Below are positions 1 through 57,242 of a stretch of DNA of 64,000 nucleotides, one piece after another. The stretch lies in the NCBI GenBank assembly GCA_032372955.1, contig GCA_032372955.1_4725.1. One strand, 5' to 3'. Under the pieces are notes generated by a model. That model was not told the DNA's origin. It saw only the letters and a program-made list of their open reading frames with translations, and searched no databases. A program made the position numbers and the translations under genes. This DNA is from Escherichia coli (GTDB taxonomy: Bacteria > Pseudomonadota > Gammaproteobacteria > Enterobacterales > Enterobacteriaceae). Within the stretch, counting starts at the first letter, position 1, and the number at the start of each line of letters is the position of its first letter.

Positions 1-200
1 TGCGTTACGACTTCGATCCGTTAGCACTGCAGGCGCTGATCGAAGCTGCGGCTGATGCTGGCTTCACCATCCGTCCTGAGAACATCCAGCATCTGGCAGG
101 TACCGCTGTTCGTGGTAACATGGCAGCACGTGCTCGTGGTCTGGGTAACATCTCCGGTAACATCTACGCACGTAGCGATCGCCCGAATGTTGGCGGTAAC
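1..200 (+). CDS. hypothetical protein, C-terminal fragment (gene begins upstream of window)
   Basis: Frame-3 open reading frame runs from window edge to TAA 198-200 with coding-like codon usage; not in ORF track because it lacks a start. Confidence 0.4.
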
Positions 201-256
201 AACATGGGTGGGGCATTCAACCTGTTCTAATGGAAGAACGTTCGATGTAATCTGAC

Positions 257-280
257 GGGAGGGAGGGCAACCTCCCTCCC
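257..280 (+). terminator. GC-rich stem-loop downstream of upstream gene
   Basis: Inverted repeat GGGAGGGAGG / CCTCCCTCCC read directly; no T-tract. Confidence 0.35.
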
Positions 281-322
281 TTATACGTCCTAACGTTCTT
301 TTTCATTTGTAGGAGATACCCC

Positions 323-2916
323 ATGGCCATCATGCTCGATATCGTGAGTTTCGATAGACAGCTCGCAGAACTTCCTTTTACGCCGATTTTGTTGAATGAT
401 TACGATACAAAAGTCGTCGAAGAGAAGAAGAAATTAAACAGTTTTATTACCCGTGTTTACTCCAGCGATACGTTGGATATCACGCCACAATGTGGTTGTG
501 GTTTCTACAATCGTGGTGAGCTACTCGGCACGGTGTGTCCAAACTGTAAAACGGTTGTAACCTACCCAGCAGAACAAGAGATTCGTTCGACGGTTTGGGC
601 GCGTGTTCCTGAAGGAATCGATGCGTTCATTAACCCGTTGGTCCATCTCGTGCTGGCAAGCGAGTTGAATATCAAAAGCTTTGAAACGATGACGTGGCTA
701 ATTGATGCCAGTTACCGTCCAAATGTAAAACGACCCATCGAACTCAAGAACTATCTGGAGCAGCAATTCGATGTATTCGGGATACGGCGCGGTGTAAATA
801 GCTTTATACAGAACTTCGATCGCATCATGGAGATCTTGTATAAAGGACCTACGTTACGTGGACCGAAGAACACGGAGAAAGTTGACACACTACGAGAATT
901 CATCCGTATCCATCGTGATAAGTTCTTCAGTCAGTATATCAGCTTTCCTGCGGCCATGATGTTCGTTATCGAGAATACGCCAACCGGTCGTTATGCGGAT
1001 AGCAAAATGGAAGGTGCGATCGATGCTATCGGTACGTTGAACAGTATCTATCATCCAACAACACCTTTGAGCGCCAGAAAGAAAGAAAACTGGATGGCGA
1101 AAGTGCAATTGAAGCTGCTGCAATACCATGCGGCGATTTTCGATGAGTTCATCGGTAAGAAGAAAGGTATTACACGTAAAAACATATTAGGTACATTACA
1201 TCCATTCACCACGCGTACCGTAATCAGTTCGATAACAGCGAACCATCGTTATTATCATCTGCATTTCCCATACGCGCCATTTACTTTAACCAATAAAGAA
1301 CATATCCAATCCAAGTTATTCCATCGTGGTTATTCGCCAAGAGCAGCACGTGCGTTCGTTGCGGAACATGTTCGCAATTATCATCCGATGATGAGCGAGC
1401 TGCATGATGAGCTTATTGCTGATACACCGTTCGATGGGATTGTGTGTGGTTTTGTTCGAAACCCATCACTTGACCGAAGCAGTAACCAATGTCTTGAAAT
1501 CACCAAGGTTAAACGCGATCCGCAGGATAACACCATCGGGTTAAGCGTGATGATCTTGAAAGGGTCGTTAGGCCCAGTAACGCAGAAATGTTGTTACGAG
1601 GAACTCCCTAATGCGGGAACCTACTTAGAGCCTTGTCCACCAACCACGTCTGGGAACAGAGTGTGGGGCTGAACTAATCATTCAGGTACGGTAAAAGCGG
1701 CAAGGATTGGGGAATCCGCAGCGAAGTCTCCAGAACGGAGATGTGCTCAACGACTATCGCTTACGGGCGTTAGGGCCAAGCGGTGTGGGAAACCACCGGT
1801 CATTTGACCGCCGAAATGGGAGCCCCGACCAGATAATGCTGAGGGTGAAAGATATAGTCTCTTCTTACGTGAAAGACGTAAGCAGTACCTTAGGTACGGG
1901 TATGGAGTAGCGAACCATACTGAAGATTTAGATAATGCAGATTTCAGTTTTTTCAATTAAATCAATAACTTACGATGATTTATTGATACCGTCGGGATCT
2001 GGTTTCTGGTAACAGGAACATAGTTAAAACTCTCTAATTGACGGGAAGTTTCTGTAATCGGACTACACACCAACTCATCGTGGTGACACAGATGAGGGCC
2101 AGCGTAATGAACTGGGTACGGTAAAAGAGGTAGGACGGGAATAATCCGCAGCGAAGCATCTCAACAAGAACGTTCACCTGATTATAGGAATCCACGAATG
2201 TTCGTTAAGATGTGTGCTCACAGACTATCGAAAGACGCGATGTCGAGTAGAGTAGGCTCTGTTAAACACAGACCCAAACGGGAGACTCCTCGCAACGAGG
2301 ATGAAGATATAGTCGATAAACAGCGACGGGGATGCTTAATCATAGGCCCTGCCTTCCGAAAGGAAGAGCTTGGATTCCGTGAATTGCTGGGAAGGGCTAA
2401 GGCCGCTACGCCTCGTAAGAGGAACCGATAAGGTAGAAACAAGGTAGCGGATGTACGCGGCTTCAATGACAATCCCTTCGGGGATGCCTACCGTACATGA
2501 CAATGTTCGATCAGCAGCGAAGCTCCGTTTAGGAGAACGTTCAACGAATACGTGGTCTCAAGCGAGATCCAGCGCGGAAGTCCTACGTTCCATTTGGAAT
2601 ATGGATAAGATGTATTCTGGACATTCCGGTAACACCGGAAGCTGCAGGTAAAGCTGCGGGTATGAGGTAGCGACTCATGCTGAACACTACGATGAACAAC
2701 CATATCGTCCCAGACATTTGGACTGCGAAACATTTCGGGCGTTTTCGACCCGAACTCGGTATGATGGATAATAACGTACCTTTTAAGGTATCTAAGAAAT
2801 GTGAACATCAGTCACCGGTTATTTCTACCATTGACTGTTGGTTCAACGAATTCGTGGAGGGCGATGACGTAGAACCTTATCTTGACGAAATAGAAGCAAC
2901 TAACAACCATTGCTAA
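323..2916 (+). CDS. RNA polymerase beta-prime-like subunit, N-terminal part; proposed exons 323-1565, 1932-1944, 2324-2336, 2692-2916 (about 497 aa)
   Basis: Zn-finger CGCGFYNRGELLGTVCPNC and RKNILGTLHPFTTRTVI resemble bacterial beta-prime; proposed spliced product reads [21 protein letters not shown], matching the universal [15 protein letters not shown] catalytic loop; RBS AGGAG before ATG 323. Confidence 0.55.
1566..1931 (+). ncRNA. group I intron 1 (putative self-splicing, no ORF)
   Basis: Q-like AATCCGCAGC 1713-1722, R-like CTCAACGACTATCG 1746-1759, S-like AAGATATAGTC 1849-1859 (R/S complementary GACTAT/ATAGTC); exon ends in U1565, intron ends in G1931. Confidence 0.55.
1945..2323 (+). 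ncRNA. group I intron 2 (putative)
   Basis: Second copy of GGTACGGTAAAAG and AATCCGCAGC (2143-2152), R-like GCTCACAGACTATCG 2215-2230, S-like AAGATATAGTC 2304-2314; boundaries inferred from reading-frame continuity; 3' splice site unusually close to S element. Confidence 0.4.
2337..2691 (+). ncRNA. group I intron 3 (putative)
   Basis: R-like GTTCAACGAATACG and complementary S-like AAGATGTATTC; 3' module GTATGAGGTAGCGACTCATGCTGAA mirrors intron 1 end; TAGGCCC near 5' end as in intron 1; ends in G2691. Confidence 0.4.
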
Positions 2917-2931
2917 AGGAGGACGCCTGTA

Positions 2932-3570
2932 ATGGCGCAAATATTTACAGGTGGACGAGACAGTTATCGTGCACTGAGGTTCGGAGAAATGTCCTCCGGT
3001 CTCGATAAAAGCTTTATGGAGTACGGCCACAAGCTGATGAATAGCCTCGGCGGCGCAAGCGAACACGTAAAGCATTTTTACGCTGAATCGTTAGCAACGT
3101 TCGACGCATTCAATCAGATAAACTATGCTGAACTCCGTAAGACGCTGTTGAGACAATCGGAGAACATCTTCCATGACGATGTGGTTATGCCATGTATCAC
3201 CGTGGAAGACTTCCGTGCCGCAAACGGCATATCTCGACAACTGATCATGGCGTGCCCTGAATTACGTACGAAGGCACAGCGTCAGCAGATCGAGGGGTAT
3301 GCTGAATGTTACACCGATCCGTTCAGTACGTTCAGTAATGAACTGCATCCGGACTACATGCGTGTAACAGACGGTGTGTTGATAACCGATCCTAAAACAG
3401 ATGAAACGTGGAGTATTTCCTACGAGTTTGATGATCATGAACTCGACCTACCAGAACTGAGTATCGATGATAAAGCAATTACATTAACCAACTGGGACAT
3501 GGCACGTATCCTACTGCAAGTTCCTGATGGCGAAGATTTCACCAATATCGCCGGTGGTAAATTAGGTTAA
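2932..3570 (+). CDS. hypothetical protein
   Basis: ORF track; RBS AAGGAGG upstream of ATG. Confidence 0.65.
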   Translation: MAQIFTGGRDSYRALRFGEMSSGLDKSFMEYGHKLMNSLGGASEHVKHFYAESLATFDAFNQINYAELRKTLLRQSENIFHDDVVMPCITVEDFRAANGISRQLIMACPELRTKAQRQQIEGYAECYTDPFSTFSNELHPDYMRVTDGVLITDPKTDETWSISYEFDDHELDLPELSIDDKAITLTNWDMARILLQVPDGEDFTNIAGGKLG

Positions 3571-3585
3571 TCCATTTAATGGCTG

Positions 3586-3619
3586 CCCTCCCTGCCTTAT
3601 GCAGGGAGGGTTTATGCCG
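3586..3619 (+). promoter_or_regulatory. GC-rich hairpin followed by TTTATGCCG (terminator plus putative late-promoter TATG motif)
   Basis: CCCTCCCTGC / GCAGGGAGGG stem then TTTATGC; member of recurring cassette. Confidence 0.45.
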
Positions 3620-3652
3620 CATGCAATCTTAAAATTGAAAACGAGGACAATC

Positions 3653-4450
3653 ATGAGTGTAAAACGTACTTCTCTGGGCTATCGTCGCATTGCGAGCCTG
3701 GCAACCCAAGAGGATATTATCTATCGTATCGAACACGATAAATTAGAATTTACCATGAACGACGCAGCCAATATCTGCGGTCGTTTAAACATTGAACGCG
3801 ATAGCAATAATGCGATGTATGTTGCCGCATTGTATTTTAATGGACGGTTGATTGAAACGAGTTTCAGCGTTGATCGCTTTGAGGATACCAGTAGCAGAGT
3901 GAAAACATTGATGGCGAACATGTTCGTCCGTACGTATTTACGTACACGTATTTCACGTTACGTTGGAAACGGTTTATCGGAAACAGAAGAGCATGGCTTA
4001 CGTCGCGGACTTTATAAATTGCTTTTAGAATTGCTGCCTACGCGGTACGGTATTACGGTTCCTGATGTGGATGATGTGTACTGGCGAGATACGTTGGACT
4101 GGATGCTGTATCAGATTTCCGAGACGACCTCCGACCTTCGTTATACCCGAAGCTTAAAAGGAGGAAGCTATGCCGTATACCGCAGCCTTCGTTATAATGA
4201 ACAGCAACATAAGGCGATGATAGTCACACGTCTTGTCTTCACGGTGAAAAGCGGATTAGGAGATACAGCTAACATTGAACCTTTCTCTGAGAAAAGCCAG
4301 TATACGACACATCTCATCGAACCCGTCGATTGTGTTACTGACGATCATACGCTCGATCGTTACGCACGACAGATCTGGCAGACGCTGACGTTACCGCATA
4401 TGGACATCGGTCTTCAGTCGTATACGCATCGTGATAGGAGAACACGTTAA
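3653..4450 (+). CDS. hypothetical protein
   Basis: ORF track frame; start moved to ATG 3653 downstream of hairpin, RBS GAGGA. Confidence 0.6.
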   Translation: MSVKRTSLGYRRIASLATQEDIIYRIEHDKLEFTMNDAANICGRLNIERDSNNAMYVAALYFNGRLIETSFSVDRFEDTSSRVKTLMANMFVRTYLRTRISRYVGNGLSETEEHGLRRGLYKLLLELLPTRYGITVPDVDDVYWRDTLDWMLYQISETTSDLRYTRSLKGGSYAVYRSLRYNEQQHKAMIVTRLVFTVKSGLGDTANIEPFSEKSQYTTHLIEPVDCVTDDHTLDRYARQIWQTLTLPHMDIGLQSYTHRDRRTR

Positions 4451-4458
4451 TCCAACAT

Positions 4459-4482
4459 TTTTCACGGCTATATTACTTAAGT
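4459..4482 (+). promoter_or_regulatory. putative early promoter TTTCACGGCTATATTACTTA
   Basis: Near-identical motif also at 27737 and 57151, related copy at 9736; contains TATATTAC core. Confidence 0.45.
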
Positions 4483-4569
4483 GATGTACAACATCAATCG
4501 ACTGTATAAGGCATATCACATTGTCCTTATATTGGAAATTAAATCCTAACGAAATCCGAGGATAGTAAA

Positions 4570-5034
4570 ATGACTTTAGCACAAGAAACCCAAATTCTGT
4601 TTATCCTGTCTCTCATCCTGGGCGCAGGTCTTATAATTTATTTAGCAGTAGCAGGTATGCGGTTACGTGAAGATGATAAACTTTATCAGATGACCGCCAA
4701 CTGGTTATTACGTCGTATCAACAAAGACTACGACAGCAGCTACTGTGAATTACTCGACAATCTGTCCAAAGACTGGATTCGTGCTTACGCTTACCCTGTT
4801 CGCCGTATGGCACAGCTGAGCAAGAAGTGGTTCAAAGCCAATCCGCGCACGACAATCAAACTCAACGGTATGGAACAAGCAAAGGTAATGACTTGGTTAC
4901 TTAACTTCGAACAGTATCCTGAAAATTGGAAAGTGGCCAAGATTCGTACAAACCGTTCCCTGGATGAAGTTATTCGTTTAGCGGCAGAGTTGCGCGGTCG
5001 TAATGTTAACGACGTTATCGCAGCTTTGGTTTAA
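4570..5034 (+). CDS. hypothetical membrane protein (N-terminal TM helix)
   Basis: ORF track; hydrophobic stretch FILSLILGAGLIIYLAVAG. Confidence 0.65.
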   Translation: MTLAQETQILFILSLILGAGLIIYLAVAGMRLREDDKLYQMTANWLLRRINKDYDSSYCELLDNLSKDWIRAYAYPVRRMAQLSKKWFKANPRTTIKLNGMEQAKVMTWLLNFEQYPENWKVAKIRTNRSLDEVIRLAAELRGRNVNDVIAALV

Positions 5035-5045
5035 GTATTTTTGCG

Positions 5046-5096
5046 GTCTCTCCCTACCTTCGGGTGGGGAGGGGCTGCCCATTCTTTTTTATTTTT
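5046..5096. terminator. rho-independent terminator (stem-loop plus T-tract)
   Basis: CTCTCCCTACC/GGTGGGGAGGGG stem followed by CATTCTTTTTTATTTTTG. Confidence 0.6.
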
Positions 5097-5152
5097 GTAA
5101 CTTTCTACGAATTTCCACCACCCTATGAAATGAAAAGCTTGAGGAGAACGGA

Positions 5153-5602
5153 ATGATCCATTTTGATGGTAATAGCAGCCAGCATTTTTCCTTTGAGGTC
5201 GAACAAACAAACAGTACCTTGGTCGGACGTTTCGGTGATGGTAACACACCGTTGTTTACCTACACGTACATGCTCAATAATGAACAACCGATGCGAATTA
5301 ACGCGACCAACTTCATGGCGGCGTTATGGGTGATCTACGGACTTAAAGTCGCCAACAGTAAATCGTACGCCTACAATAACTTTTTTCATGCTTGGTGGCA
5401 GCTTGAGTGTTATAATCGATTAAAGATTCCCGTACCTAAACATCCAGCAGAGTTGTCCGATATTGTTTATTTGGACTGTGGGTATATCGATATGCATACG
5501 CGAACATTTTACGCACCACGCACCAATGTATCCATGCCCGTCGAACTGGAGTTAGGGCATATGCCTAACTACGATAGATTGGTTGGAATGAATTACGCTT
5601 AA
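5153..5602 (+). CDS. hypothetical protein
   Basis: ORF track; RBS GAGGAG upstream. Confidence 0.65.
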   Translation: MIHFDGNSSQHFSFEVEQTNSTLVGRFGDGNTPLFTYTYMLNNEQPMRINATNFMAALWVIYGLKVANSKSYAYNNFFHAWWQLECYNRLKIPVPKHPAELSDIVYLDCGYIDMHTRTFYAPRTNVSMPVELELGHMPNYDRLVGMNYA

Positions 5603-5615
5603 AGAGGAGTTCCTC

Positions 5616-6023
5616 ATGGCATCGAATCCGTTACCTGGGCTGTCGAGCTTTTTAACCGCGTCGGGAAAAAAGCTGGATGGGTTAATGACCAATTTCGCAA
5701 TATCGAATTATTCCCAGTCGTATTGCTACCAAGGCTCTATCGTTTCACTACCGTACCTCATTGCAACGTCGCAGTATAGCGCACCCAAATTGGAAGATGC
5801 GACATACCGGATGTTGTATGATTATTTAATGCGTTATTACGATCGCGTGGAATTGAAAGTCCGTGTCAAGTATATCGATCCGACGACGGAACGTGTCGAT
5901 CTCCAGATTGGTGGGATTGTCACAGAGAAAGGTATATCGTACGATTTGGGCGGTGTTCTGCGATCCGAGCGTGGTAATTTTATCAAGTGGCAGGAGGAAG
6001 TAAATGAAGGCGCGCCAAACTAA
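5616..6023 (+). CDS. hypothetical protein
   Basis: ORF track; RBS AGAGGAG upstream. Confidence 0.65.
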   Translation: MASNPLPGLSSFLTASGKKLDGLMTNFAISNYSQSYCYQGSIVSLPYLIATSQYSAPKLEDATYRMLYDYLMRYYDRVELKVRVKYIDPTTERVDLQIGGIVTEKGISYDLGGVLRSERGNFIKWQEEVNEGAPN

Positions 6024-6786
6024 CAGCAACGTTAGCGAAGGAACGGATTTATTGGGGTATCCGGCTGGGGTGGTGGTTGTAAATGAAGAAGAGCGCATCC
6101 GTCGCGCTCAGGATCCGTCCATCCCGAAAACAAGACCGGACATGTGGCAGGAGCTGGTAGACAACAGCGAGCTTCTACGAAAAGGTTTACAGGAGATGAC
6201 GCGTCCCAACATCCTGCCTGAATCGCTGTTTGTTAAACATTTCTTGTATCCGTTCGCAGGAATGTTTTCGCAGGATCCTGAATACGCGGAGATGCTGAGT
6301 AATAGCACCATTGTTCACGATTGGTGCAAGATAGCAGGCCAACCGCATCGTGCTGTTAATATTGTTGCTGATGGGAATAACAACAAGGTTCTGTTTACGG
6401 TACCAGCTATCTTTATCCGGACACGTTCATACATCAATCGTGACCCCAATACGTGTTTCCTCGCGATGGTGGACAAAGCACGCCGACAGTATAACTTCAA
6501 TCCTGAAAGCGCTAAAGCTTACGTCGACCATCAGCTTGATCGCTTTGCCCCAAATGAAAGCAAAGACCATGTTGTTGCTGATTACGTGCAATGGCTTCGG
6601 ATTTTTGACCATTATAACGTACCCCTTTACGACGTTCGTGATGGTTCACGTCGTACGGTAAAAGAGCGTGGGTTATTAAATGGATTGAATCTGGCCAGAA
6701 CTTCTTCAACAACTGCGTCGGTGGGTAGTAGAAACATGCCGTCTACGACGGGGACTATTAGCAGCAGCAACTTAGAGGAATTCTGA
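6004..6786 (+). CDS. hypothetical protein
   Basis: ORF track; RBS GGAGGAAG upstream; overlaps neighbours by few codons. Confidence 0.6.
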   Translation: MKARQTNSNVSEGTDLLGYPAGVVVVNEEERIRRAQDPSIPKTRPDMWQELVDNSELLRKGLQEMTRPNILPESLFVKHFLYPFAGMFSQDPEYAEMLSNSTIVHDWCKIAGQPHRAVNIVADGNNNKVLFTVPAIFIRTRSYINRDPNTCFLAMVDKARRQYNFNPESAKAYVDHQLDRFAPNESKDHVVADYVQWLRIFDHYNVPLYDVRDGSRRTVKERGLLNGLNLARTSSTTASVGSRNMPSTTGTISSSNLEEF

Positions 6787-9735: not shown

Positions 9736-9763
9736 AAATTATTCACGCTTATATTACCTTTGT
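9736..9763 (+). promoter_or_regulatory. putative early promoter variant (TTCACGCTTATATTACCTTT)
   Basis: Shares TTCAC and TATATTAC with the three conserved copies. Confidence 0.35.
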
Positions 9764-9814
9764 GGTAGACGTCATAGAATACGTTTTAACAGGGAACCGC
9801 GAAAAGAGGTTGTT

Positions 9815-25514: not shown

Positions 25515-27596
25515 TCACCATTCCAAGAACGCAGGTCGTGGTTTAATATCGTATTCCGTGGTGTTTACGGTAACGTATTGATCGTATCCTTCCATCGCCA
25601 ACGTTTCTTGCAAGTTAACATCATCTTGCTTGTTCACAACATATTTGACACCCGTGATTTCTTCAACAAGCTGTCGACTTAACTCCATGATTTCGTGGCT
25701 ACGTGTAGAAACGTTACCCTCGCTTCCCGTATCTAACATGAAACGATAAATCCGAACAGGTTGCGTTTGCCCTACACGGTCAAGACGGCTGATGGCTTGG
25801 ATTTCATCGGATGAACGCCATGGGTTGTTCAGGAAAAGACCGACATTACACATCAGCATCGGAACCCCTTCAGCTAAGCTATCAAATGTTGCGATAGCGG
25901 GACCGCTGTCAGGATCATCGCGTAAGCGAGCAAGTATCTGGTTGATGTTCTTGTTGGTCTTCCCGTAAATGGGTTCAGGTAAGAAACCCGCATCACGAAG
26001 CATGTTGTCGACGCGCTCAACCACCTGAACGTACGACGTGAAGATCAACACTTTGGCTTCAGCGTTGTTGATGTACCCTTCGAAGTCGATGTACTCCACC
26101 ATGTCGACATGACACCGAATGCGGGCTGCACCTAGAACACGGGCCAACGCTTCACCCTGAATTTTCAACCCAACGTACTTGATGACACTCTTGGCGTCTT
26201 TGAAAGCAATCCTTAAATCGGAAGGAAGAACCGGCATGATAGAACGTTTTTCAAACGCATTGCAGAACATCGCATCTTCTTTGTCTCTGACGGGATCGTA
26301 ACCTTTCTGGAAACGAGCGACGATCGATTCGTATCGAGATAGCTCTTTACGTTCTCCGTCGGTACGAATAGTCTTACGATAGTAGTCCAAGGCGTCATCA
26401 AAAATCTTTCTGTAGTGTCCCCAGTTATCCTTGTAATACTTCGCCCGATCGCGTACAAATATCGCCATGTCGTCGCGGATACTCGAGATGGTATAATCGC
26501 TGCCGTTAGGGAGCTTCACGTAAACATCCTGAACTTCCGGTCGGGTTTTACGATAAGCTTCTTTAGGTACAACATGCATCATGAACCCAAGACGATGTCT
26601 GAGGATATCGTTAGCGCGACTGCTGGTTAAACCGTAAATCGCTTTGAAGCTATCGACCACCTGTCCTTGGAACATCGGGTCGATACAACCTAAACATGGG
26701 ATCATCTCAGAACCCATCTGTTTAACGGGCGTACCCGACATAAACAAGACATGCACATCCGCATTCATGGTCTGACGCATCGTCTGTACGAGATCAACCA
26801 ATCGTTGGGAACGTTGGCTGTTCTTGTCGTTGAAGTTATGGCTTTCGTCAACCACGATCAACACGCGCTTCGCTGTGCGTTTATGCTTGATCATTACATC
26901 GTTTAATAAACCCATCGACTCGTAATGCAGAAAATAATACTTATCGCTTTTCTGCAACTGTGATGGTGGCATTGTATCTGACCAGAACGCGGTTTCTGTT
27001 GCGGGGTCAACGATGGCTTTGTTTACATCGGATTGCCATGCTGAACGCATGGTGTTCTTAGGACAGCAGACCACAAATACATCGACGTTCATTGCGGCGC
27101 TTAAAGCCAATGCGGTGATTGTTTTACCGGCACCAGCACCCATCGCACACACGTATCCTTTCAGTCGGTATTTAGGTACGTTACGGTTATAGATGTCGAT
27201 AAACTCATCTTGATAATCGAACAGGGAGAGCGTTAGCATTTTGTTCATGCGTGCTTTATCGAGGATTGCAGGTTGTTCGATTGTGGTATTTTGCAGCCAC
27301 GTTTCCTGCAGCAGTACCTCAATAAGGTGTTTCAGCATGCGTTTGTTACTGCGGGTATTCTTTGCTTCGATGATCGTTTCGAGAATATAAACGAAATCGG
27401 GAAGGTAAAAGTTGTGGAGACTGAGTCCACTAGAAGAGAAATTACGAAACATATGTTTCATAAATCGGGAGGTACCCCATATTCGCTGAATGTCATCTGA
27501 AAGACGCCAGGCATCGATACCCCCGATATGCACGGTGTTGTTACTCTGATTTTTAACCGCTATTCGGTTCATTAAACGATTGATTCTATCCAACAT
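25515..27596 (-). CDS. SNF2-family helicase/ATPase
   Basis: DExH box VVDESHNF, motif III FMSGTPVKQ, motif VI QAISRLDRVGQTQPVRIYRF; start set to internal ATG (MLDRIN). Confidence 0.7.
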   Translation of the reverse strand: MLDRINRLMNRIAVKNQSNNTVHIGGIDAWRLSDDIQRIWGTSRFMKHMFRNFSSSGLSLHNFYLPDFVYILETIIEAKNTRSNKRMLKHLIEVLLQETWLQNTTIEQPAILDKARMNKMLTLSLFDYQDEFIDIYNRNVPKYRLKGYVCAMGAGAGKTITALALSAAMNVDVFVVCCPKNTMRSAWQSDVNKAIVDPATETAFWSDTMPPSQLQKSDKYYFLHYESMGLLNDVMIKHKRTAKRVLIVVDESHNFNDKNSQRSQRLVDLVQTMRQTMNADVHVLFMSGTPVKQMGSEMIPCLGCIDPMFQGQVVDSFKAIYGLTSSRANDILRHRLGFMMHVVPKEAYRKTRPEVQDVYVKLPNGSDYTISSIRDDMAIFVRDRAKYYKDNWGHYRKIFDDALDYYRKTIRTDGERKELSRYESIVARFQKGYDPVRDKEDAMFCNAFEKRSIMPVLPSDLRIAFKDAKSVIKYVGLKIQGEALARVLGAARIRCHVDMVEYIDFEGYINNAEAKVLIFTSYVQVVERVDNMLRDAGFLPEPIYGKTNKNINQILARLRDDPDSGPAIATFDSLAEGVPMLMCNVGLFLNNPWRSSDEIQAISRLDRVGQTQPVRIYRFMLDTGSEGNVSTRSHEIMELSRQLVEEITGVKYVVNKQDDVNLQETLAMEGYDQYVTVNTTEYDIKPRPAFLEW

Positions 27597-27631
27597 AATC
27601 GCGCTCGATTTAATAGAATGTATGATAAAAA

Positions 27632-27660
27632 CTCCTCCCCACACCTTTCCTGGGGAGGAG
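27632..27660. promoter_or_regulatory. GC-rich hairpin in divergent intergenic region
   Basis: CTCCTCCCC / GGGGAGGAG inverted repeat. Confidence 0.35.
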
Positions 27661-27736
27661 GCCGGGGATGTCCCTTAAAATGACGTCATTCGACAATCCA
27701 TAAAATACGATGGGCATCGAAACGGACCAACACAAA

Positions 27737-27762
27737 TCCTTTCACGGCTATATTACTTACGT
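27737..27762 (+). promoter_or_regulatory. putative early promoter TTTCACGGCTATATTACTTA
   Basis: Identical 20-mer core to copies at 4459 and 57151. Confidence 0.45.
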
Positions 27763-27804
27763 GGGTAAAGAAAATTTATTAATAGATTCAAAGAGGTACG
27801 TGCG

Positions 27805-28491
27805 ATGAAATCTTTATATTCGTTGGATTGTTTAAATTTCTTATCTCAGGAAACACGCGCTGAAGTAATTGAAAATATTCGGAAGAACGATCTTGCCCAT
27901 CAAGAAGAACATGTGCTTGCTGTTGTTGAACTGGCAAATGAACTTGCTGATGTGGTTGGTATCATCAAGCCCACGGAACGTCGTCGTCTATTAACGGCTG
28001 CTTTTATGCATGATATCGCTTGCCACGAAAACAGAACATACCACCACCTTATCGGGGGTATTCGTGCGTCGGTTATACTGCTTCGTAACGAGCAGCATAT
28101 TTTCACACCGGAAGACATCGAGGAGATACGCGTACTTATTGCTGAGCATCGTGCGTCGTATTCTGGTCCACGTAGCTCGGTTGCTTCTCAGGTGCTTCGT
28201 CTGGCGGATATGGGTCGTCTCGATAGCGAACGTTTTGGTATCCGTGCAATCGAACATCGTTACGGTCAGATGAGCAAAGAGTTCGCATTACAGGAAACCG
28301 CCGACTATCTTATTTCTAAATTTGCGCCTGATGGCTACGCTTGGATTACGTATCCGGCGTTAGGTCAGCAACTTTATATGAAAGAGATTGCGGTGATTAA
28401 ATCGCTCTGTGCGGATCGTGATAAACTCATTGCTTATTTGGATGATGTTTATACGTATGTTGAAAAGAAACATGGTGAAATCATGTGTTAA
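27805..28491 (+). CDS. HD-domain phosphohydrolase
   Basis: His...HD signature (EEHVLAV ... FMHDIA). Confidence 0.55.
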   Translation: MKSLYSLDCLNFLSQETRAEVIENIRKNDLAHQEEHVLAVVELANELADVVGIIKPTERRRLLTAAFMHDIACHENRTYHHLIGGIRASVILLRNEQHIFTPEDIEEIRVLIAEHRASYSGPRSSVASQVLRLADMGRLDSERFGIRAIEHRYGQMSKEFALQETADYLISKFAPDGYAWITYPALGQQLYMKEIAVIKSLCADRDKLIAYLDDVYTYVEKKHGEIMC

Positions 28492-28513
28492 ACATGAAAG
28501 CGGAGAATAATGA

Positions 28514-28996
28514 ATGAGTATCGTTGATTTAACATTAACAGAAGTTGGTGATGGTATTGAGGTTTCGATGAAAACCTCCGACGATCGCACCGTTGTTGCT
28601 AAACTGGAAGAAACCCTGTACGGCAATTACGTGGTGGGCGTTTCAGGGAAGGTGAGTATGTATCGCCTGGCTGGTATTTTAAGCGTCTTTGATGGGGGAT
28701 TGCTGCCGTCCGACCAACTCGAGCTCCAGAACAAATTGATCGACAATGACTTCTACACGGAAAATGTGAAAGTCTTTGGTTACAGCATGATGGGTGGTGT
28801 ATTTAGCGCCGCGACGAACACGCTTAACTTCGGTACCCAACAACTGATTCAGTTCAGTATCGAAAAGGGTAAACTGAAAACGGCGTGGAAAGGCAGCGCT
28901 GCATTCACACCAACCGATCTTCTGCTTACTTCCGCAGAACAGCATTTAAAAGCAAGTAAATCGGGTCGTGCGTTTCTGGAGCAATTAAATCAATGA
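28514..28996 (+). CDS. hypothetical protein
   Basis: ORF track. Confidence 0.6.
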   Translation: MSIVDLTLTEVGDGIEVSMKTSDDRTVVAKLEETLYGNYVVGVSGKVSMYRLAGILSVFDGGLLPSDQLELQNKLIDNDFYTENVKVFGYSMMGGVFSAATNTLNFGTQQLIQFSIEKGKLKTAWKGSAAFTPTDLLLTSAEQHLKASKSGRAFLEQLNQ

Positions 28997-29550
28997 CCCC
29001 GGCCATCTTCTTTATGTCGGATACCCATTTTGATAGCGAGCGTACCTGGACGTATTCACGCCGTCCGTTCGCAAGCGTCGCTGATATGAACCAGCACATG
29101 CTGAAAGCCATCAACAAGCTTCCAAAGAACAGTGTGTTGTGGCATTTAGGTGATTGGGGTAAGTTCGAGTTCGTGGAAGCCATTCGTTCTGATATCCAGG
29201 TTCAATTGGTATTGGGGAATTGGGACGAAGACGCATACAAAGCAACAGGATTAAGCTTTGAAGCGTGGCGTGATAAATTGCTCGGTATGGGGTTTGCTGC
29301 GGTTTATGAACATCCGTTGGTATTGCCGATTAGCAATGACGAATCCTACTGGCTATGCCATAAGCCCAGCGAAAGAAACCCAGGCTACTTTAATTTATTC
29401 GGTCATATTCATCGCTGTATGTTAGCGAAGGCTAACGGACTTAATGTCGGCGTTGATCAGCATTTCTATGCGCCGATTAGTTTGGACACCGTGCGTTTTT
29501 GGCGTAATGCGATAGAAAATCATTACGACGAAGAAGTATGGATGGAGTGA
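28993..29550 (+). CDS. calcineurin-like metallophosphoesterase
   Basis: Motifs SDTHFD, LGDWG, GNWDED, GHIHR. Confidence 0.55.
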   Translation: MTPAIFFMSDTHFDSERTWTYSRRPFASVADMNQHMLKAINKLPKNSVLWHLGDWGKFEFVEAIRSDIQVQLVLGNWDEDAYKATGLSFEAWRDKLLGMGFAAVYEHPLVLPISNDESYWLCHKPSERNPGYFNLFGHIHRCMLAKANGLNVGVDQHFYAPISLDTVRFWRNAIENHYDEEVWME

Positions 29551-29560
29551 TCATTAACCA

Positions 29561-29587
29561 CCCTCCCTTCGGGGAGGGTTTATGCTG
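29561..29587 (+). promoter_or_regulatory. GC-rich hairpin followed by TTTATGCTG
   Basis: CCCTCCC TTCG GGGAGGG then TTTATGCTGCG. Confidence 0.5.
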
Positions 29588-29616
29588 CGTTACCAGCACC
29601 TGTTAAGGAGATAAAG

Positions 29617-29892
29617 ATGTCTCGATCATCGACACACCCTGATCCCTGGAAACGATTTCTTAAGGAGCTTCATTATCATGTCGCAGCTCGACCCGGTTTG
29701 AGCGCACACCAAATGGAAATCGTTCTACAGGCGTTACTCATACGACACCCTCAAGTTACACGTATTAAATCATTCATTGGATCTGGAGAGTTCTATGCTT
29801 GCAAAAACTGTTTTAGCCGTCGTGACCATTACATCTACTTCTATTATCGCGCGGTTCCTTCGTCAATGACGGGTCGCGGTGTGGATTTTTAA
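29617..29892 (+). CDS. hypothetical protein
   Basis: ORF track; RBS AAGGAG upstream. Confidence 0.6.
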   Translation: MSRSSTHPDPWKRFLKELHYHVAARPGLSAHQMEIVLQALLIRHPQVTRIKSFIGSGEFYACKNCFSRRDHYIYFYYRAVPSSMTGRGVDF

Positions 29893-29966
29893 CACATGAC
29901 TACGGTAAAAATTAACGGTTTTTCATGTTCGTATAGGACATGAAAACAAACAATAAAGGCGTTAGA

Positions 29967-30401
29967 ATGAAGAATTCCATTGTTCGTCACGATTCGGATC
30001 GCGGGTTTTTTATCGATACGGATATCCTTCACGATATTTATTTCAATGACGATCGTGAATTAGCTGAGCTTGTAGACCAACGCTCGGAGACAATCGTCGC
30101 TGCTGGAGGAATATTTAAACCTCAACGATGGGAGGGACTTGATGTTAGTATCCGTCCCATCATCAGCCGAGAAACGCCTTTTGAATTACTCTTTATTTTC
30201 TCACCCCGATCGTTACCTGATGAACAACCGACAACGTTATCCTTAACGGCTGAAGTTGGTTATTGGTCGTACCATATCGAACAAAACGGCGTGGTACGTG
30301 AGGGTACGCTCGAACCTTTGGAATTAAAGAAGTTTCTTGGTACCATCAAAGACCAAGAACGTAAACGTAACCGTGCAATACGGAAACAAAACCGGAATTA
30401 A
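29967..30401 (+). CDS. hypothetical protein
   Basis: ORF track frame; ATG 29967 has better RBS spacing than 29940. Confidence 0.5.
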   Translation: MKNSIVRHDSDRGFFIDTDILHDIYFNDDRELAELVDQRSETIVAAGGIFKPQRWEGLDVSIRPIISRETPFELLFIFSPRSLPDEQPTTLSLTAEVGYWSYHIEQNGVVREGTLEPLELKKFLGTIKDQERKRNRAIRKQNRN

Positions 30402-30456
30402 TTTATTAGCAATCTCGACCACAGAAATCGGTCACTTTTAATAGGAATTGAAAAGA

Positions 30457-30978
30457 ATGAAAAAGTTGTTTCTTGCGGCTTTATTTATTACGGCTTCAGC
30501 ACATGCTTGGGATTATAGCGAACTGGAAACCGGACACGCCAAACTAGGCACGATGTATACCTGGTCATCAGCAGAAGTCAGTGCACCAACCGCCCTGGAA
30601 GTTAACTGCTTGTCTACGGGAGGCGCGTGGGTAAAACTGGATACGGAAGATGAAGGTTATCAGGCACCTCTTCTTCGTGACTATCCGGGTATCGTTAAAA
30701 TCACGATTGGAACCGTTGATGGAATCAGTTATTTCAATGGAGAAACCGATCTTAACTTCTGGTCGAAGGGTGGACAACAGCGTTTGGTGAACTTCGTTAG
30801 TGAATTGAATCAAGCGTTGACCATTTCGGTGTTAACCGATGATGGTAAAACGTACCGCGTTCGTCCGATCGAACCGGAGATGCGAATCGATGTCCGTAAA
30901 TGTCCAGCGGGTGTGCCAGCAATGGTTGACCCCAACACGCGTACCGTACGCACACCTGAAGAAATGAACGCACTTTAA
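30457..30978 (+). CDS. hypothetical secreted/periplasmic protein
   Basis: Signal-peptide-like MKKLFLAALFITASAHA. Confidence 0.6.
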   Translation: MKKLFLAALFITASAHAWDYSELETGHAKLGTMYTWSSAEVSAPTALEVNCLSTGGAWVKLDTEDEGYQAPLLRDYPGIVKITIGTVDGISYFNGETDLNFWSKGGQQRLVNFVSELNQALTISVLTDDGKTYRVRPIEPEMRIDVRKCPAGVPAMVDPNTRTVRTPEEMNAL

Positions 30979-34294: not shown

Positions 34295-35620
34295 ATGATG
34301 AGCAAACTACTGTTTGAAATTAACGGGAAAGAATATACACCGCCCCAGGCAGTTATCGGTGCGTTATTACGATACACTGCATACCGGCGTCAAGGATGGT
34401 TGTTTGATATTGATGGACCGGCGTTTATTACAGCGATACAGGATGCTATCGCCCCGAAGAAATTATGCGATAATTACAATACTGAACTGTCGTACAAATT
34501 ATCGCCTATGGTTCCATATGCGTCCTATAAGGAACTTTTGACGGGTATATGTTCGTATGAACAAGGTGGGTCCACATCGTACACGCGTGCGCTGGAATTC
34601 GTAGAAGAAATAGTGCGTCGATTGAAAGTTGATCCGTATAACACGCGTAAGGGAATAATACAACTAATGGTGTACGATTTCTCGGCTAGCCAAGAAATCA
34701 TCGCGGAGTATAATCCTTACTTACTTATACGTGCTTTCTTCTGGATCGATGCAGCGCTAGATGATCGTTCCGGACCATGCCGTTTAGCGATTCATGCCGG
34801 TGAACGCCAGTTGAAGCAATGGTTGGAAGATTGCGATATCAATTTGCATGGCATGACGATACCCGATTTCTTCGAAGACTATTTTTCGTTATCGGGACTC
34901 GATGATGCTGTAGTAGAACTGAAACCTACGGATACCGATCCGGTTGTCGTCGAACTTAAAACCGAATCGGATACCAGCAACCATTCGTTCGAGCCGTTAG
35001 CGGTAGAGAAGCCTGCATTTTGTTTAGATGTTGAAAACCTTAGTTTGGAAAAGAATGGAGTATTGCTGGAAATCGGTATCGTGTTCTTCGATCTGGCTAA
35101 TCCAGAATCCATTGTTAACGGTCCGCGTATAGATATCTTCCCTGACGTTCATGGTCAAATCGCTGACGGCGGTCGTATCAGTGAATCAACAGTAGAATGG
35201 TGGCAAACCAAAGCACCAAAGGAAGCGCGCGACTATTGTTTTCAACATTGTAAGGCAATGGGTTATAAAGAAGCCATCGCCGAAGTAAATGCGTTCGTCA
35301 ACAGTATTCGTGACAGAATGACTGAATACTACGGTAAAGATACCTTCTATTATCTTGCTCGTGGTGAAACAGATTGGCCTCAATTAGAGCATTGGTTCCG
35401 TAAAGCGGGCTTTAAGCCAGTTTGTCGTTATAACCAGGTTCAGGATATCCGTTCGATGATTGCTGCGTATCAAGACAAACCGGTATCCATCTTAGGCACC
35501 AAAGAGTATCCAGACATGGGTATTCCGCTGATCCGTCATACCGCTATCGGTGACGCAATCATGGATGCGTACGACGTTGCGTTAGCGCGAAGCATGGCGA
35601 CGTCTAAGCTACTGAAGTGA
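34295..35620 (+). CDS. DEDDh-type 3'-5' exonuclease (DnaQ-like domain in C-terminal half)
   Basis: Exo motifs LDVENL, ARGETDW, HTAIGDAIMDAYD. Confidence 0.55.
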   Translation: MMSKLLFEINGKEYTPPQAVIGALLRYTAYRRQGWLFDIDGPAFITAIQDAIAPKKLCDNYNTELSYKLSPMVPYASYKELLTGICSYEQGGSTSYTRALEFVEEIVRRLKVDPYNTRKGIIQLMVYDFSASQEIIAEYNPYLLIRAFFWIDAALDDRSGPCRLAIHAGERQLKQWLEDCDINLHGMTIPDFFEDYFSLSGLDDAVVELKPTDTDPVVVELKTESDTSNHSFEPLAVEKPAFCLDVENLSLEKNGVLLEIGIVFFDLANPESIVNGPRIDIFPDVHGQIADGGRISESTVEWWQTKAPKEARDYCFQHCKAMGYKEAIAEVNAFVNSIRDRMTEYYGKDTFYYLARGETDWPQLEHWFRKAGFKPVCRYNQVQDIRSMIAAYQDKPVSILGTKEYPDMGIPLIRHTAIGDAIMDAYDVALARSMATSKLLK

Positions 35621-38442: not shown

Positions 38443-38646
38443 ATGTTAACGAAGGAATCCAAGAAGAACATTGAAGCATGGATTTTTGATAATGCGCCGT
38501 TGAATCTATCATTGGATCCGAAGGTTCGTGGTTTACAAGCTGATTTTGCGTATAACGTGTTACATGGTTGCTGTTACACGTTAAGCAATCCTAAATATCG
38601 TTATAAATTTCAGGAACTACTCGAAACACTTAGAGGATTAAAATGA
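38443..38646 (+). CDS. hypothetical protein
   Basis: ORF track frame; ATG 38443 with RBS GAGGTGAAAA. Confidence 0.55.
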
Positions 38647-39662
38647 AACAGTATTTGGACCTTTTGCAAGACATCATGGATAACGGTCGCGATAAAGCCG
38701 ATCGCACAGGTACCGGAACCCGTTCCGTATTCGGGCGTCAAATGCGTTTTGACTTGAAGAAAGGATTCCCGCTGGTAACCACCAAGAAGATTCACCTTAA
38801 GAGCGTTATCCACGAACTGCTCTGGTTTCTTAACGGTGATACGAACGTTGCTTATCTTCAAGATAACGGTGTTCGTATCTGGAATGAATGGGCTGACGAA
38901 GAAGGGAATCTAGGACCGATTTACGGCAAACAATGGCGGGAATGGATCGACTATAAAGTGGTTGTTCCGCACGATACAGAACGTACTCGTGAGTTGATGC
39001 AACGCGGCTATGAGTATTGCGGCATCCTTGACGCCGGTATGCTAAAACACCTCGTGTATGTTAAACCTCACGATCAGATTGCAAACGTAATGCGTCAGCT
39101 TAAAGAAGATCCTGATTCTCGACGGATCATCGTTAGCGCGTGGAACGTAGGCGATTTAGACGATATGCATCTCGCTCCGTGCCATTCATTTTATCAGTTC
39201 TATACCCACGAGCTCACGATCGATGAACGCGTTGATTATGTTCAACGCAATGACGTATTAAGAACCCAATGGGTTACGGATGACGTACGGCATAGTGAAA
39301 CGGAACTTTGGTTGAACGCGCATAACGTACCAACACGTGCTTTATCCTGTCAGCTTTATCAGCGATCGTGCGACGCAGTGCTTGGGAAACCGTTCAACAT
39401 CGCATCGTATTCGTTGTTAACGCATATGCTTGCCCAACAGCTGAATATGGACGTTGGTGAGTTCGTGTGGACGGGTGGAGATTGCCACATCTATCACAAC
39501 CACTTCGAACAGGTTAAAGAGCAGCTCAGTCGTGAGCCGTACCCATTACCGAAGCTAACAATCGTACGTAAACCGGAAAGTATTACGGATTACCGTTACG
39601 AAGACTTTGTGTTTGTTGGATATCAATCACATCCGGCTATCAAGGCTAAGGTGGCGGTGTAA
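38643..39662 (+). CDS. thyA: thymidylate synthase (ThyA-like, with two insertions relative to the ~264-aa canonical enzyme)
   Basis: [78 protein letters not shown]. Confidence 0.9.
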
Positions 39663-57150: not shown

Positions 57151-57175
57151 ATTTTCACGGCTATATTACTTAGGT
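57151..57175 (+). promoter_or_regulatory. putative early promoter TTTCACGGCTATATTACTTA
   Basis: Third identical copy; followed by hairpin GGTGAAGC...GCTTCACC. Confidence 0.45.
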
Positions 57176-57242
57176 GAAGCAATGCAGTAATCAGCTTCAC
57201 CTTGAATTATTAGCAACCAATCCAATATAAAAGGATGTCAAG

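Follow-up and report, generated by a model that had tools for sequence, protein, structure and literature searches.

A compact three-gene operon of a jumbo phage joins an HD-domain phosphohydrolase to a calcineurin-like metallophosphoesterase (MPE), with a lineage-specific gene between them. The cassette resembles auxiliary nucleotide metabolism more than an established anti-immunity device. The explanation given most weight, held tentatively, is that the operon is a discrete, probably early auxiliary cassette whose products reshape or clean up the nucleotide pool during infection. It was found in a window of 64,000 nucleotides (the whole stretch of DNA analysed) from a jumbo phage that infects E. 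coli and forms a phage nucleus; Escherichia phage Goslar is a 96% relative.

Operon layout

The three ORFs at 27805-29550 correspond to Goslar gp159, gp158, and gp157. Their existing Goslar annotations read "putative HD superfamily hydrolase", "hypothetical protein", and "putative phosphoesterase or phosphohydrolase", respectively. The operon and its borders comprise the following features:

25515-27644, − strand: SNF2-type helicase gene, divergent from the operon
27632..27660, − strand: boundary terminator-like hairpin of the helicase gene (-24.4 kcal/mol, z=-2.2), a putative terminator in the Goslar annotation
27741..27763, + strand: promoter-like motif TTCACGGCTATATTACTTACGTG, 48 nt before the HD start codon
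27749-27756, + strand: AT-rich core TATATTAC of the promoter-like motif
27805..28491, + strand: HD-domain phosphohydrolase, Goslar gp159, 228 aa, predicted member of the YedJ/YpgQ/PenF clade
28514..28996, + strand: lineage-specific protein, Goslar gp158, 160 aa, with a GGAG ribosome-binding site upstream
28993..29550, + strand: minimal calcineurin-like MPE, Goslar gp157, 185 aa, aq_1665/COG4186 family, phrog_547
29560..29586, + strand: terminator-like hairpin ACCCUCCC-UUCG-GGGAGGGU, then UUUAUGC, 10 nt past the MPE stop codon

This succession of promoter-like motif, three genes, and strong hairpin terminator points to a single transcription unit. The gp158 stop codon overlaps the MPE start codon (ATGA). 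The distal hairpin is unusually stable (MFE -21.4 kcal/mol, z=-4.1, with none of 200 shuffles equally stable) and is also detected by a terminator scan; the Goslar annotation has no terminator at this position. At the other border, the helicase hairpin stands between the helicase gene and the operon promoter region.

The operon recurs, together with its promoter-like motif, terminator, and adjoining helicase, in a metagenomic relative (L011/L012) whose operon proteins share 38%, 38%, and 51% identity with those of the window. The L012 hairpin, at the equivalent position, has another stem, an identical UUCG loop, and a U-tract (z=-5.6). Nine Goslar-like contigs carry the operon intact, and across them each of the three genes shows strong purifying selection (dN/dS 0.03-0.10).

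Promoter-like motif and timing

The 23-mer TTCACGGCTATATTACTTAnGTG occurs in three exact copies in the window (at 4461, 27741, and 57154) and in none of 100 shuffles; a variant fourth copy lies at 9742. Each of the four is intergenic, lies on the + strand, and precedes by 48-93 nt the start of a gene that bears a ribosome-binding site. The motif is conserved in L011/L012, and a related motif, TATATTACTTA, lies upstream of the HD gene in L011. A sigma-70 scan of 27400-30600, where 6.2 sites would be expected, gave a single promoter-like site, at 29940-29968 beyond the 3' end of the operon, and no site before the HD gene. The Rfam scan of the whole window gave no match. The core TATATTAC is presumably the phiKZ early consensus; a literature search for this string gave no lead.

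The early promoters of jumbo phages, read by the virion RNA polymerase, are described as phage-specific, conserved, AT-rich motifs of about 10 nt that precede early operons and are centred near -10 of mapped starts (PMC7598289). The window motif fits this class description, which suggests that TTCACGGCTATATTACTTAnGTG marks an early, virion-polymerase promoter. In Goslar, 175 of 249 genes are on by 5 min post-infection, a genome-wide count.

The first-pass annotation had described HD and MPE ORFs, starting at 27805 and 28993, that flank one further ORF in a single short operon downstream of an early-promoter-like motif. Both ORFs match exactly in coordinates and significantly in Pfam and PHROGs, and the operon is upheld, with added support from the conserved terminator, the ATGA overlap, and conservation in the distant relative. 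The motif stands as a repeated element and, going by the class description, as a putative early promoter.

The HD phosphohydrolase

gp159 belongs to the HD superfamily, with its H...HD...D motif and all-alpha fold. It matches Pfam HD (PF01966; E=5.7e-8, 33.5 bits, cut-off 22) and phrog_3921 of PHROGs (2e-30); its metal ligands H36, H69, D70, and D135 are invariant across 67 family members; and its AF2 model is all-helical (pLDDT 96). An indexed protein search returned no HD relatives, so an exhaustive search took its place; the family is present in about 95 jumbo-phage records.

Profile comparison places the family, in all probability, in the YedJ/YpgQ/PenF clade of nucleotide 5'-phosphohydrolases: the family profile matches 2pq7 (3e-16), YedJ (4e-12), and YpgQ (3e-4). 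The spacing from the HD pair to the distal Asp is 65 residues, the same as in YpgQ. Class I 3',5'-cyclic-nucleotide phosphodiesterases are recognised by a PDEase_I profile, a C-terminal nucleotide pocket, and a longer interval, about 117 residues in PDE4D numbering. The gp159 fold resembles that of class I cyclic-nucleotide phosphodiesterases.

Five further columns are strongly conserved in the family: H32 (67/67), R147 (62/67), Y/F151 (58/67), H168 (63/67), and K172 (66/67). Matched by spacing and through the 2pq7 alignment, rather than by direct alignment to either enzyme, family residues correspond to YpgQ H25, H29, H58, D59, D124, R136, F140, and H158 (PMC8177086), and to PenF R140, F144, H174, and K178, whose mutants are inactive (PMC11592144). 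The window protein departs from the family at two of these substrate columns: H151 for Y/F, and Y168 for H. The reported kcat/KM of YpgQ on dNTPs is very low (PMC8177086), so the reference activity itself may not be physiological.

Two signalling-enzyme families were compared with gp159. The HD-GYP hallmarks (HHExxDGxGYP about 60 residues past the HD pair, and an HD_5-type profile) are absent from the protein, as are those of SpoT, Mesh1, and the small alarmone hydrolases (an HD_4-type profile together with close structural similarity).

Gene order connects the HD family with thymidylate synthesis. Vibrio phage pTD1 has the order DHFR, HD, ThyA; the HD gene adjoins ThyA in Photobacterium phage PDCC-1; and ThyA lies 1.5 kb from HD in Proteus phage 10. 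This linkage is seen in three sampled phages, from two of about eight sampled lineages. In the window, ThyA lies 10 kb downstream of the operon, within the same co-directional block. The "putative phosphohydrolase" of SA002, two genes from its HD gene, was considered as an MPE or HD protein and rejected: it has no similarity to them and no Pfam domain.

The metallophosphoesterase

gp157 is a calcineurin-like MPE with the five motifs DxH, GD, GN, H, and GHxH. It matches Pfam Metallophos_2 (PF12850; E=4.1e-8, 33.8 bits, cut-off 27) and the PHROGs family phrog_547, "phosphoesterase" (1e-30). D10, H12, D54, H123, H138, and H140 do not vary in a 56-member alignment, in which N76 is conserved in at least 90%; residues specific to the family are R17, R24-P25-F26, and N151-V-G-x-D155. 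The gene is under purifying selection (dN/dS 0.03-0.09), and the AF2 model is confident (pLDDT 97).

Within the superfamily, gp157 falls in the aq_1665/COG4186 family (phrog_547). Its family profile matches 1xm7 (3e-15, positions 2-164) and MJ0936 (1e-3), Foldseek aligns the model with 1xm7 (E=4e-9, TM 0.68), and COG4186 is named in the Goslar annotation. The nucleases PolD-DP1 and Mre11 are second-tier structural matches (TM about 0.45-0.5); gp157 itself, at 185 aa, has neither a capping nor a DNA-binding domain. Comparison with PdeM (NCBIfam TIGR04123) gave 19.7 bits, over 30 residues only, against a cut-off of 150.

The MPE and HD families differ in phyletic distribution, and the two are paired only in the Goslar clade; none of the sampled chimalliviruses outside that clade carries this MPE. 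The phage MPE family is scattered over unrelated large virulent phages, sometimes as tandem paralogs. Its neighbours mostly form nucleotide- or NAD-metabolism islands (ThyX, Nudix, and MazG; elsewhere TK, PnuC, NAMPT, and PRTase). The contexts are heterogeneous, and tRNA-repair and counter-defence genes occur among the neighbours too.

The middle protein

gp158 has no match in Pfam, PHROG, NCBIfam, PADLOC, or PDB, and is restricted to Goslar-like genomes and the syntenic position in L011/L012 (38% identity, E=1e-30). This syntenic homologue in a distant relative, along with a dN/dS of 0.07-0.10, shows the ORF to be a real gene. Two candidate relationships were rejected. In RisingSun and Miami the HD gene is followed by genes of about 160 aa, which show no homology to gp158 and constitute families of their own. 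A PDB profile lead to the PpnP/UPF0345 nucleoside phosphorylases (E=0.3) was accompanied by no Pfam match, and hhalign against E. coli PpnP gave a probability of 1.2% over 17 columns.

Possible roles of the cassette

The tentatively preferred explanation, remodelling of the nucleotide pool, runs as follows. Injected virion RNA polymerase would presumably read the promoter-like motif, yielding a single mRNA for the HD enzyme, the 160-aa protein, and the MPE that would end at the hairpin past the MPE gene. The HD enzyme, as a metal-dependent hydrolase of the YedJ/YpgQ/PenF type, would most likely bind a (deoxy)nucleoside 5'-phosphate. It could act like YpgQ, which removes pyrophosphate (dNTP to dNMP plus PPi), or like PenF, which removes phosphate (dNMP to nucleoside); either activity would supply or balance the phage thymidylate pathway, or clear unwanted nucleotides. 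The MPE would be a minimal binuclear phosphodiesterase that most likely targets a small molecule derived from a nucleotide, or else the end of a nucleic acid. The 160-aa protein, apparently coupled to the MPE in translation, is probably its partner in function, and the operon products may be coupled physically or functionally. The HD-MPE pairing would then be an acquisition of the Goslar clade, and no obligate two-enzyme system.

The first-pass annotation had wavered between phosphodiesterases of immune signals and nucleotide metabolism. For the HD enzyme the evidence leans to metabolism, because its closest families are YedJ, YpgQ, and PenF; the phage family appears to keep their nucleotide-binding residues; and the gene is linked to ThyA and DHFR elsewhere.

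Under the alternative, the HD enzyme, the MPE, or both would hydrolyse the second messengers of host immunity: the cyclic di- and trinucleotides of CBASS, the cCMP and cUMP of Pycsar, the cADPR isomers of Thoeris, or the cyclic oligoadenylates of type III CRISPR. An early promoter would put the enzymes in place before signalling starts, and the likeness of the HD fold to class I cyclic-nucleotide phosphodiesterases is consistent with such a role. However, neither gp159 nor gp157 falls in a known immune-signal-degrading family, and this role is unlikely. Rather unlikely as well is a broader form, in which the cassette performs counter-defence directed at nucleotides, not at protein or DNA, and destroys either immune messengers or toxic nucleotide analogues that defence systems produce, for instance chain terminators of the viperin type, which would poison the RNA polymerases of the phage. 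Its agents would be a phosphodiesterase-like HD enzyme, possibly dinuclear, and an MPE with a lineage-specific partner.

Host takeover in the manner of phage T5 would make the MPE a host-DNA nuclease, or part of one, with the HD enzyme disposing of or recycling the released deoxynucleotides. In T5, A1 (host DNA degradation) and dmp share a pre-early transcription unit, with two small ORFs between them, and A1 was classed as calcineurin-like by Iyer et al. An early MPE of a mycobacteriophage causes damage to host DNA and contributes to immune evasion (PMC12287305), and the PolD-DP1 and Mre11 matches also point towards nucleases. Nevertheless, homology to Dmp or A1 (hhalign probability below 1%) or to the mycobacteriophage MPE (0.4%) is not detectable, and the 185-aa MPE is devoid of capping and DNA-binding domains. 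The HD gene, moreover, is kept in RAY and PCH45, phages that do not degrade host DNA, and the MPE is missing from the sampled chimalliviruses outside the Goslar clade. Takeover of this kind is accordingly quite improbable.

A last alternative is RNA end-healing. Host anticodon nucleases or toxins would cut tRNAs or mRNAs, and the MPE, the HD enzyme, or both would ready the broken ends for repair by taking off the 2',3'-cyclic phosphate or 3'-phosphate. The MPE domains of CthPnkp and lambda phosphatase do such chemistry (PMC2190708); for a few jumbo phages, Iyer et al. place calcineurin-like and HD domains in such a role; the gene of one MPE homolog overlaps a Thg1-like gene and is three small genes from an HD-domain CCA-adding enzyme; and the EFDG1 MPE comes after an Rv2179c-like exoribonuclease. 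This is the least probable role, and a very doubtful one, given that no RNA ligase or polynucleotide kinase is present in the operon or annotated in the Goslar equivalent of the window, that the conserved HD-family residues are mononucleotide binders in YpgQ and PenF, and that a tRNA-repair context is found at only one of about ten MPE loci.

Significance

Chimalliviruses are a model for the phage nucleus, and most of their genes are unannotated. A widely conserved accessory HD hydrolase can now be placed, provisionally, in the YpgQ/PenF nucleotide-hydrolase clade, and in Goslar it shares a compact and conserved operon, probably an early one, with an MPE that is horizontally mobile. If the enzymes only adjust dNTP supply, this is routine auxiliary metabolism. 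If they instead hydrolyse immune signals or toxic analogues, they would form a new enzyme family for phage counter-defence, and nucleus-forming phages would still require soluble anti-signalling factors. Were the broader counter-defence role to hold, the chimallivirus-wide HD family would be a new class of phage anti-immunity hydrolase.

Comparison with known systems

The T5 pre-early operon (A2 - A1 - dmp) likewise combines a nucleotide phosphohydrolase (Dmp, a 5'-dNMPase and putative HD protein) with calcineurin-like A1, and has small ORFs between. The likeness is one of organisation only: A1 is a 555-aa protein with a role in DNA transfer as well, and A1 and Dmp were rejected as homologues of the MPE and HD proteins (hhalign probabilities 0.5% and 0.1%; neither has a Pfam match).

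The cluster A mycobacteriophage MPE (A10ZJ24 gp48/Bxb1 gp47) is similarly early, has phosphodiesterase activity, and is implicated in beating host immunity. It is, however, a 254-aa protein whose reported target is host genomic DNA, and hhalign (probability 0.4%) puts gp157 in another MPE family than Bxb1 gp47. The phage immune-signal nucleases Acb1 and Apyc1 and the predicted HD-GYP and HD-alarmone phosphodiesterases of jumbo phages have other traits in common with the cassette: they are phage-encoded, early, and metal-dependent or phosphodiesterase enzymes acting on nucleotides. Iyer et al. (2021) put forward this idea for jumbo phages.

For gp157, the nearest likeness is to Aquifex aeolicus aq_1665 (1XM7)/COG4186 and, much more distantly (E=1e-3), to MJ0936/YfcE: single-domain MPEs, about 180 aa long, in which the five metal-binding motifs are complete. 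The residue after GN is not His in gp157, as is true of diesterases of the YfcE/MJ0936 type; aq_1665, itself uncharacterised, lacks the R-x6-RPF motif of the phage family.

For gp159, the counterparts are the stand-alone HD nucleotide phosphohydrolases B. subtilis YpgQ (5DQV), S. antibioticus PenF, E. coli YedJ (3GW7), and 2PQ7, the last two uncharacterised. Identity to them is only 14-20%. The phage family, like 2pq7, has the additional invariant residues R77, H80, H115, R116, and S118, and gp159 carries a C-terminal helical extension for which class I phosphodiesterases give the better alignment. Unlike YpgQ, PenF, and YedJ, it is encoded by a phage, in an operon that is probably early.

Operon anatomy

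Over positions 27000-30500 the window shares 96.3% identity with vB_EcoM_Goslar, a nucleus-forming Escherichia jumbo phage (Chimalliviridae), and the three genes considered here are Goslar gp159, gp158, and gp157, in that order. The first-pass annotation placed an HD-domain phosphohydrolase gene at 27805 and a calcineurin-like metallophosphoesterase (MPE) gene at 28993, with one ORF between them. These coordinates are exact, and Pfam supports both domains above threshold: HD for gp159 (E=5.7e-8) and Metallophos_2 for gp157 (E=4.1e-8). In PHROGs, gp159 matches phrog_3921 (unknown function) and gp157 matches phrog_547 (phosphoesterase), each with E near 1e-30. The middle ORF, gp158, has no match in Pfam, PHROGs, NCBIfam, PADLOC, or PDB.

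Features of the operon and further copies of the promoter-like motif
27741-27763, +, promoter-like 23-mer TTCACGGCTATATTACTTACGTG upstream of the HD gene
27805-28491, +, HD gene (gp159), 228 aa; Goslar annotation "putative HD superfamily hydrolase"
28514-28996, +, middle gene (gp158), 160 aa; Goslar annotation "hypothetical protein"
28993-29550, +, MPE gene (gp157), 185 aa; Goslar annotation "putative phosphoesterase or phosphohydrolase"
10 nt past the MPE stop, terminator-like hairpin ACCCUCCC-UUCG-GGGAGGGU, then UUUAUGC
4461-4483, 9742-9764 (variant), and 57154-57176, +, other motif copies, ~23 nt

The window holds three exact copies of TTCACGGCTATATTACTTAnGTG (4461, 27741, and 57154), whereas 100 shuffles gave none; a variant lies at 9742. 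All four copies are intergenic, on the plus strand, and followed 48-93 nt downstream by a start codon with a Shine-Dalgarno sequence. According to a review of jumbo-phage RNA polymerases, early operons in each of these phages are preceded by a conserved, phage-specific AT-rich motif of ~10 nt, which is centred near -10 and recognised by the virion RNA polymerase (PMC7598289). The window motif fits this class as a putative early promoter, and by analogy we infer early expression of the trio; Goslar expresses 175 of its 249 genes by 5 min into infection. Four copies per 64 kb imply either that early transcripts are long and polycistronic or that there are further promoters of another kind.

A separate GGAG ribosome-binding site serves the middle gene, whose stop codon overlaps the MPE start (ATGA), implying translational coupling. 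The hairpin beyond the MPE gene (-21.4 kcal/mol, z=-4.1) and, on the other side, a divergent SNF2-type helicase gene (25515-27644) with its own terminal hairpin make the trio a bounded unit. An Rfam scan of the whole window found no family match. The Goslar sequence carries an annotated group I intron and HNH endonuclease (169269-169645) beside an RNA polymerase beta-subunit gene; with no match in the window at gathering threshold, that locus lies outside the window, differs, or scores below threshold.

Conservation and distribution

A distant relative, represented by two metagenomic contigs (L011, 4.5 kb, and L012), has the same layout: opposite-strand helicase, HD, a 161-aa gene, and MPE. 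Compared with the window proteins, HD (E=5e-50) and the middle protein (E=1e-30) are each 38% identical, MPE is 51% identical, and the helicase 46-55%. The motif TATATTACTTA again lies upstream of the HD gene, and the hairpin after MPE has another stem with the same UUCG loop and U-tract (z=-5.6). The trio is also complete, without gaps, in nine Goslar-like contigs, with dN/dS of 0.025-0.041 for HD, 0.068-0.098 for the middle gene, and 0.034-0.086 for MPE. The earlier description as one short operon is thus borne out by its bounded anatomy, its layout in the distant relative, and its integrity in the nine contigs; the layout, integrity, and low dN/dS also mark the middle ORF as a genuine, constrained gene.

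Three side observations can be added. L012 has a second promoter-like motif, TTCAAGGCTACATTACTAAGGTG (1397-1419), between the operon terminator and the next gene; the window has none between terminator and next ORF (29617), so downstream genes may differ in expression between the phages. The L011 helicase (2-2437, minus strand) carries, relative to the window helicase, a ~360-aa insertion exactly at the Walker-A (GAGKT) region, with flanks at the 46-55% identity; its location and length point to an intein or the insertion of a homing endonuclease. Near-identical copies of MPE (cluster P0002, 28993-29547) and of the middle protein (cluster P0095, 28514-28993) occur in NCBI Escherichia coli and Salmonella enterica Enteritidis assemblies, which suggests that these bacterial assemblies contain DNA of Goslar-like phages, through contamination or pseudolysogeny, and that the host range possibly includes Salmonella.

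The two enzymes are distributed differently. HD homologs were found in 95 phage records at 26-34% identity; among the matches listed, carriers are ~190-295 kb, jumbo or near-jumbo, and mostly of chimallivirus lineages, including RAY, Ea35-70, RisingSun, PCH45, OBP, Miami, pTD1, Aphrodite1, and the Aeromonas PS1 and D3 groups. MPE homologs (129 records) occur in quite unlike phages: Yoloswag-type Erwinia phages; Enterococcus, Bacillus, and Streptomyces myophages; Xanthomonas phages; and others. Because 12 HD neighbourhoods sampled outside the Goslar clade lack MPE, and ~10 sampled MPE neighbourhoods lack a stand-alone HD gene, the pairing is a Goslar-clade feature and not a conserved two-enzyme system. 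The enzymes have separate histories, and the middle gene is confined to the Goslar clade. Many chimalliviruses have a 150-165-aa gene after HD (L003 4678-5163, L005 4658-5152, L006 4154-4618, L008 4181-4651, L023 3730-4209, and L025 3630-4088). These genes can be sorted into three or more mutually related groups (RisingSun/Miami; ACP1/Yubaba; SA002/SNUABM_37), to none of which the window ORF has detectable similarity; size and position alone are conserved.

The HD enzyme

An exhaustive search yielded 351 cluster representatives. In an alignment of 67 members, H32, H36, H69, D70, R77, H80, H115, R116, S118, D135, and G177 are invariant. The profile matches stand-alone HD proteins: 2pq7 (3e-16), E. 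coli YedJ (4e-12), B. subtilis YpgQ (3e-4), 3djb, Lin1889, and SE1688. YpgQ is a Mn-dependent (d)NTP pyrophosphohydrolase, itself of weak activity, with metal ligands H29, H58, D59, and D124 and helper residues H25, R136, F140, and H158 (PMC8177086). PenF, a YpgQ-like 5'-nucleotidase, depends on R140, F144, H174, and K178 (PMC11592144). Judged by spacing and by the alignment to 2pq7, the phage family has an apparently corresponding residue set: HxxxH; HD, then 65 residues to D135; R147 (62 of 67), 12 residues beyond; Y or F four residues later (58 of 67); H168 (63 of 67); and K172 (66 of 67). The window and Goslar enzymes instead have H151 (~nt 28255-28257) and Y168 (~nt 28306-28308), as if two putative substrate-pocket residues had traded places; in L011 the usual Y and H are present.

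Gene contexts also point to metabolism. Vibrio phage pTD1 carries the HD gene between those for dihydrofolate reductase and thymidylate synthase; in Photobacterium phage PDCC-1 thymidylate synthase directly follows it; Proteus phage 10 has a ThyA homolog at a distance of 1.5 kb; and the window ThyA gene (38643-39662), 10 kb further downstream, belongs to the same co-directional block. We place gp159 in the YedJ/YpgQ/PenF clade. Most likely it would hydrolyse the 5'-phosphate chain of some (deoxy)nucleotide. With the extra invariant residues H80 and H115, a dinuclear site of the diesterase type would be possible.

The metallophosphoesterase

Across 56 aligned MPE members, metal ligands D10, H12, D54, H123, H138, and H140 are invariant and N76 nearly so; R17, R24-P25-F26, and N151-V-G-x-D155 are family-specific. 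Aquifex aq_1665 (1xm7), itself of unknown function, is the one good relative with a solved structure (profile E=3e-15, Foldseek E=4e-9, TM 0.68). MJ0936 is distant (1e-3), and MPE nucleases such as PolD DP1 and Mre11 are weaker structural matches (TM ~0.45-0.5). An NCBIfam search rejected PdeM, and profile comparison rejected kinship with T5 A1 and with the mycobacteriophage immune-evasion MPE. Neighbours elsewhere are varied, but most are enzymes that act in the metabolism of nucleotides, NAD, or nucleic acids:

Gene contexts of MPE homologs
ThyX, second MPE, Nudix, MazG
PnuC, thymidine kinase, NAMPT, a phosphoribosyltransferase
L016 (218-kb metagenomic contig) 3255-6567, Thg1-like enzyme, CCA-adding enzyme
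L013 (83-kb metagenomic phage contig) 2217-11432, DHH phosphoesterase, 5'-3' exonuclease, NADAR
L009 (Enterococcus phage EFDG1) 3467-6172, Rv2179c-like 3'-5' exoribonuclease, two tandem MPE paralogs

In L016, MPE overlaps the end of the Thg1-like gene and a CCA-adding enzyme with an HD domain lies three small genes downstream, a putative phage tRNA-repair cluster. An Acb1 (anti-CBASS) homolog 5 kb downstream of the L013 block makes it a possible counter-defence island. After these, the L009 run has a small ORF and one more MPE, its third, which resembles Ser/Thr phosphatases; Goslar gp147 is likewise an Rv2179c-like (DUF5051) exonuclease, ~5 kb downstream of MPE (window ~34295-35620). The predicted substrate class is broad: a phosphodiester or phosphoanhydride, either within a molecule of the nucleotide type or at the end of a nucleic acid.

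Possible roles

The best-supported reading, offered tentatively, is that the trio may be an early-expressed auxiliary cassette for the nucleotide pool. The HD enzyme would convert or clean up (d)NTPs or (d)NMPs, and MPE, with its translationally coupled partner gp158, would hydrolyse a related phosphoester. Of the two options in the first-pass annotation, HD residues and contexts favour, for that enzyme, nucleotide metabolism over degradation of immune signals. The latter is unlikely: it would suit the PDE-like fold of the HD enzyme, the dinuclear site that it may have, and what was predicted before for jumbo phages, but both enzymes fall outside every known signal-degrading family tested, and the family-specific residues and gene contexts of HD point to mononucleotides. 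That the whole trio is a nucleotide-directed counter-defence unit is quite unlikely. A T5-like module for host-DNA breakdown is very doubtful, attractive as the analogy to T5 organisation is: no homology to T5 A1 or Dmp was found, and RAY and PCH45, phages that leave host DNA undegraded, keep the HD gene. RNA end-healing, with the L016 neighbourhood as its single supporting context and no ligase or kinase nearby, is most improbable.

Relation to known systems

The generic annotation of all three genes was already known from Goslar, and gp159 and gp157 are new members of known families. New here are a bounded, conserved operon; the placement of a chimallivirus-wide HD family in the YpgQ/PenF clade; the linkage of HD with ThyA; and a mobile MPE that is specific to the Goslar clade, with a private partner protein. 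Together, these findings are useful, not surprising.
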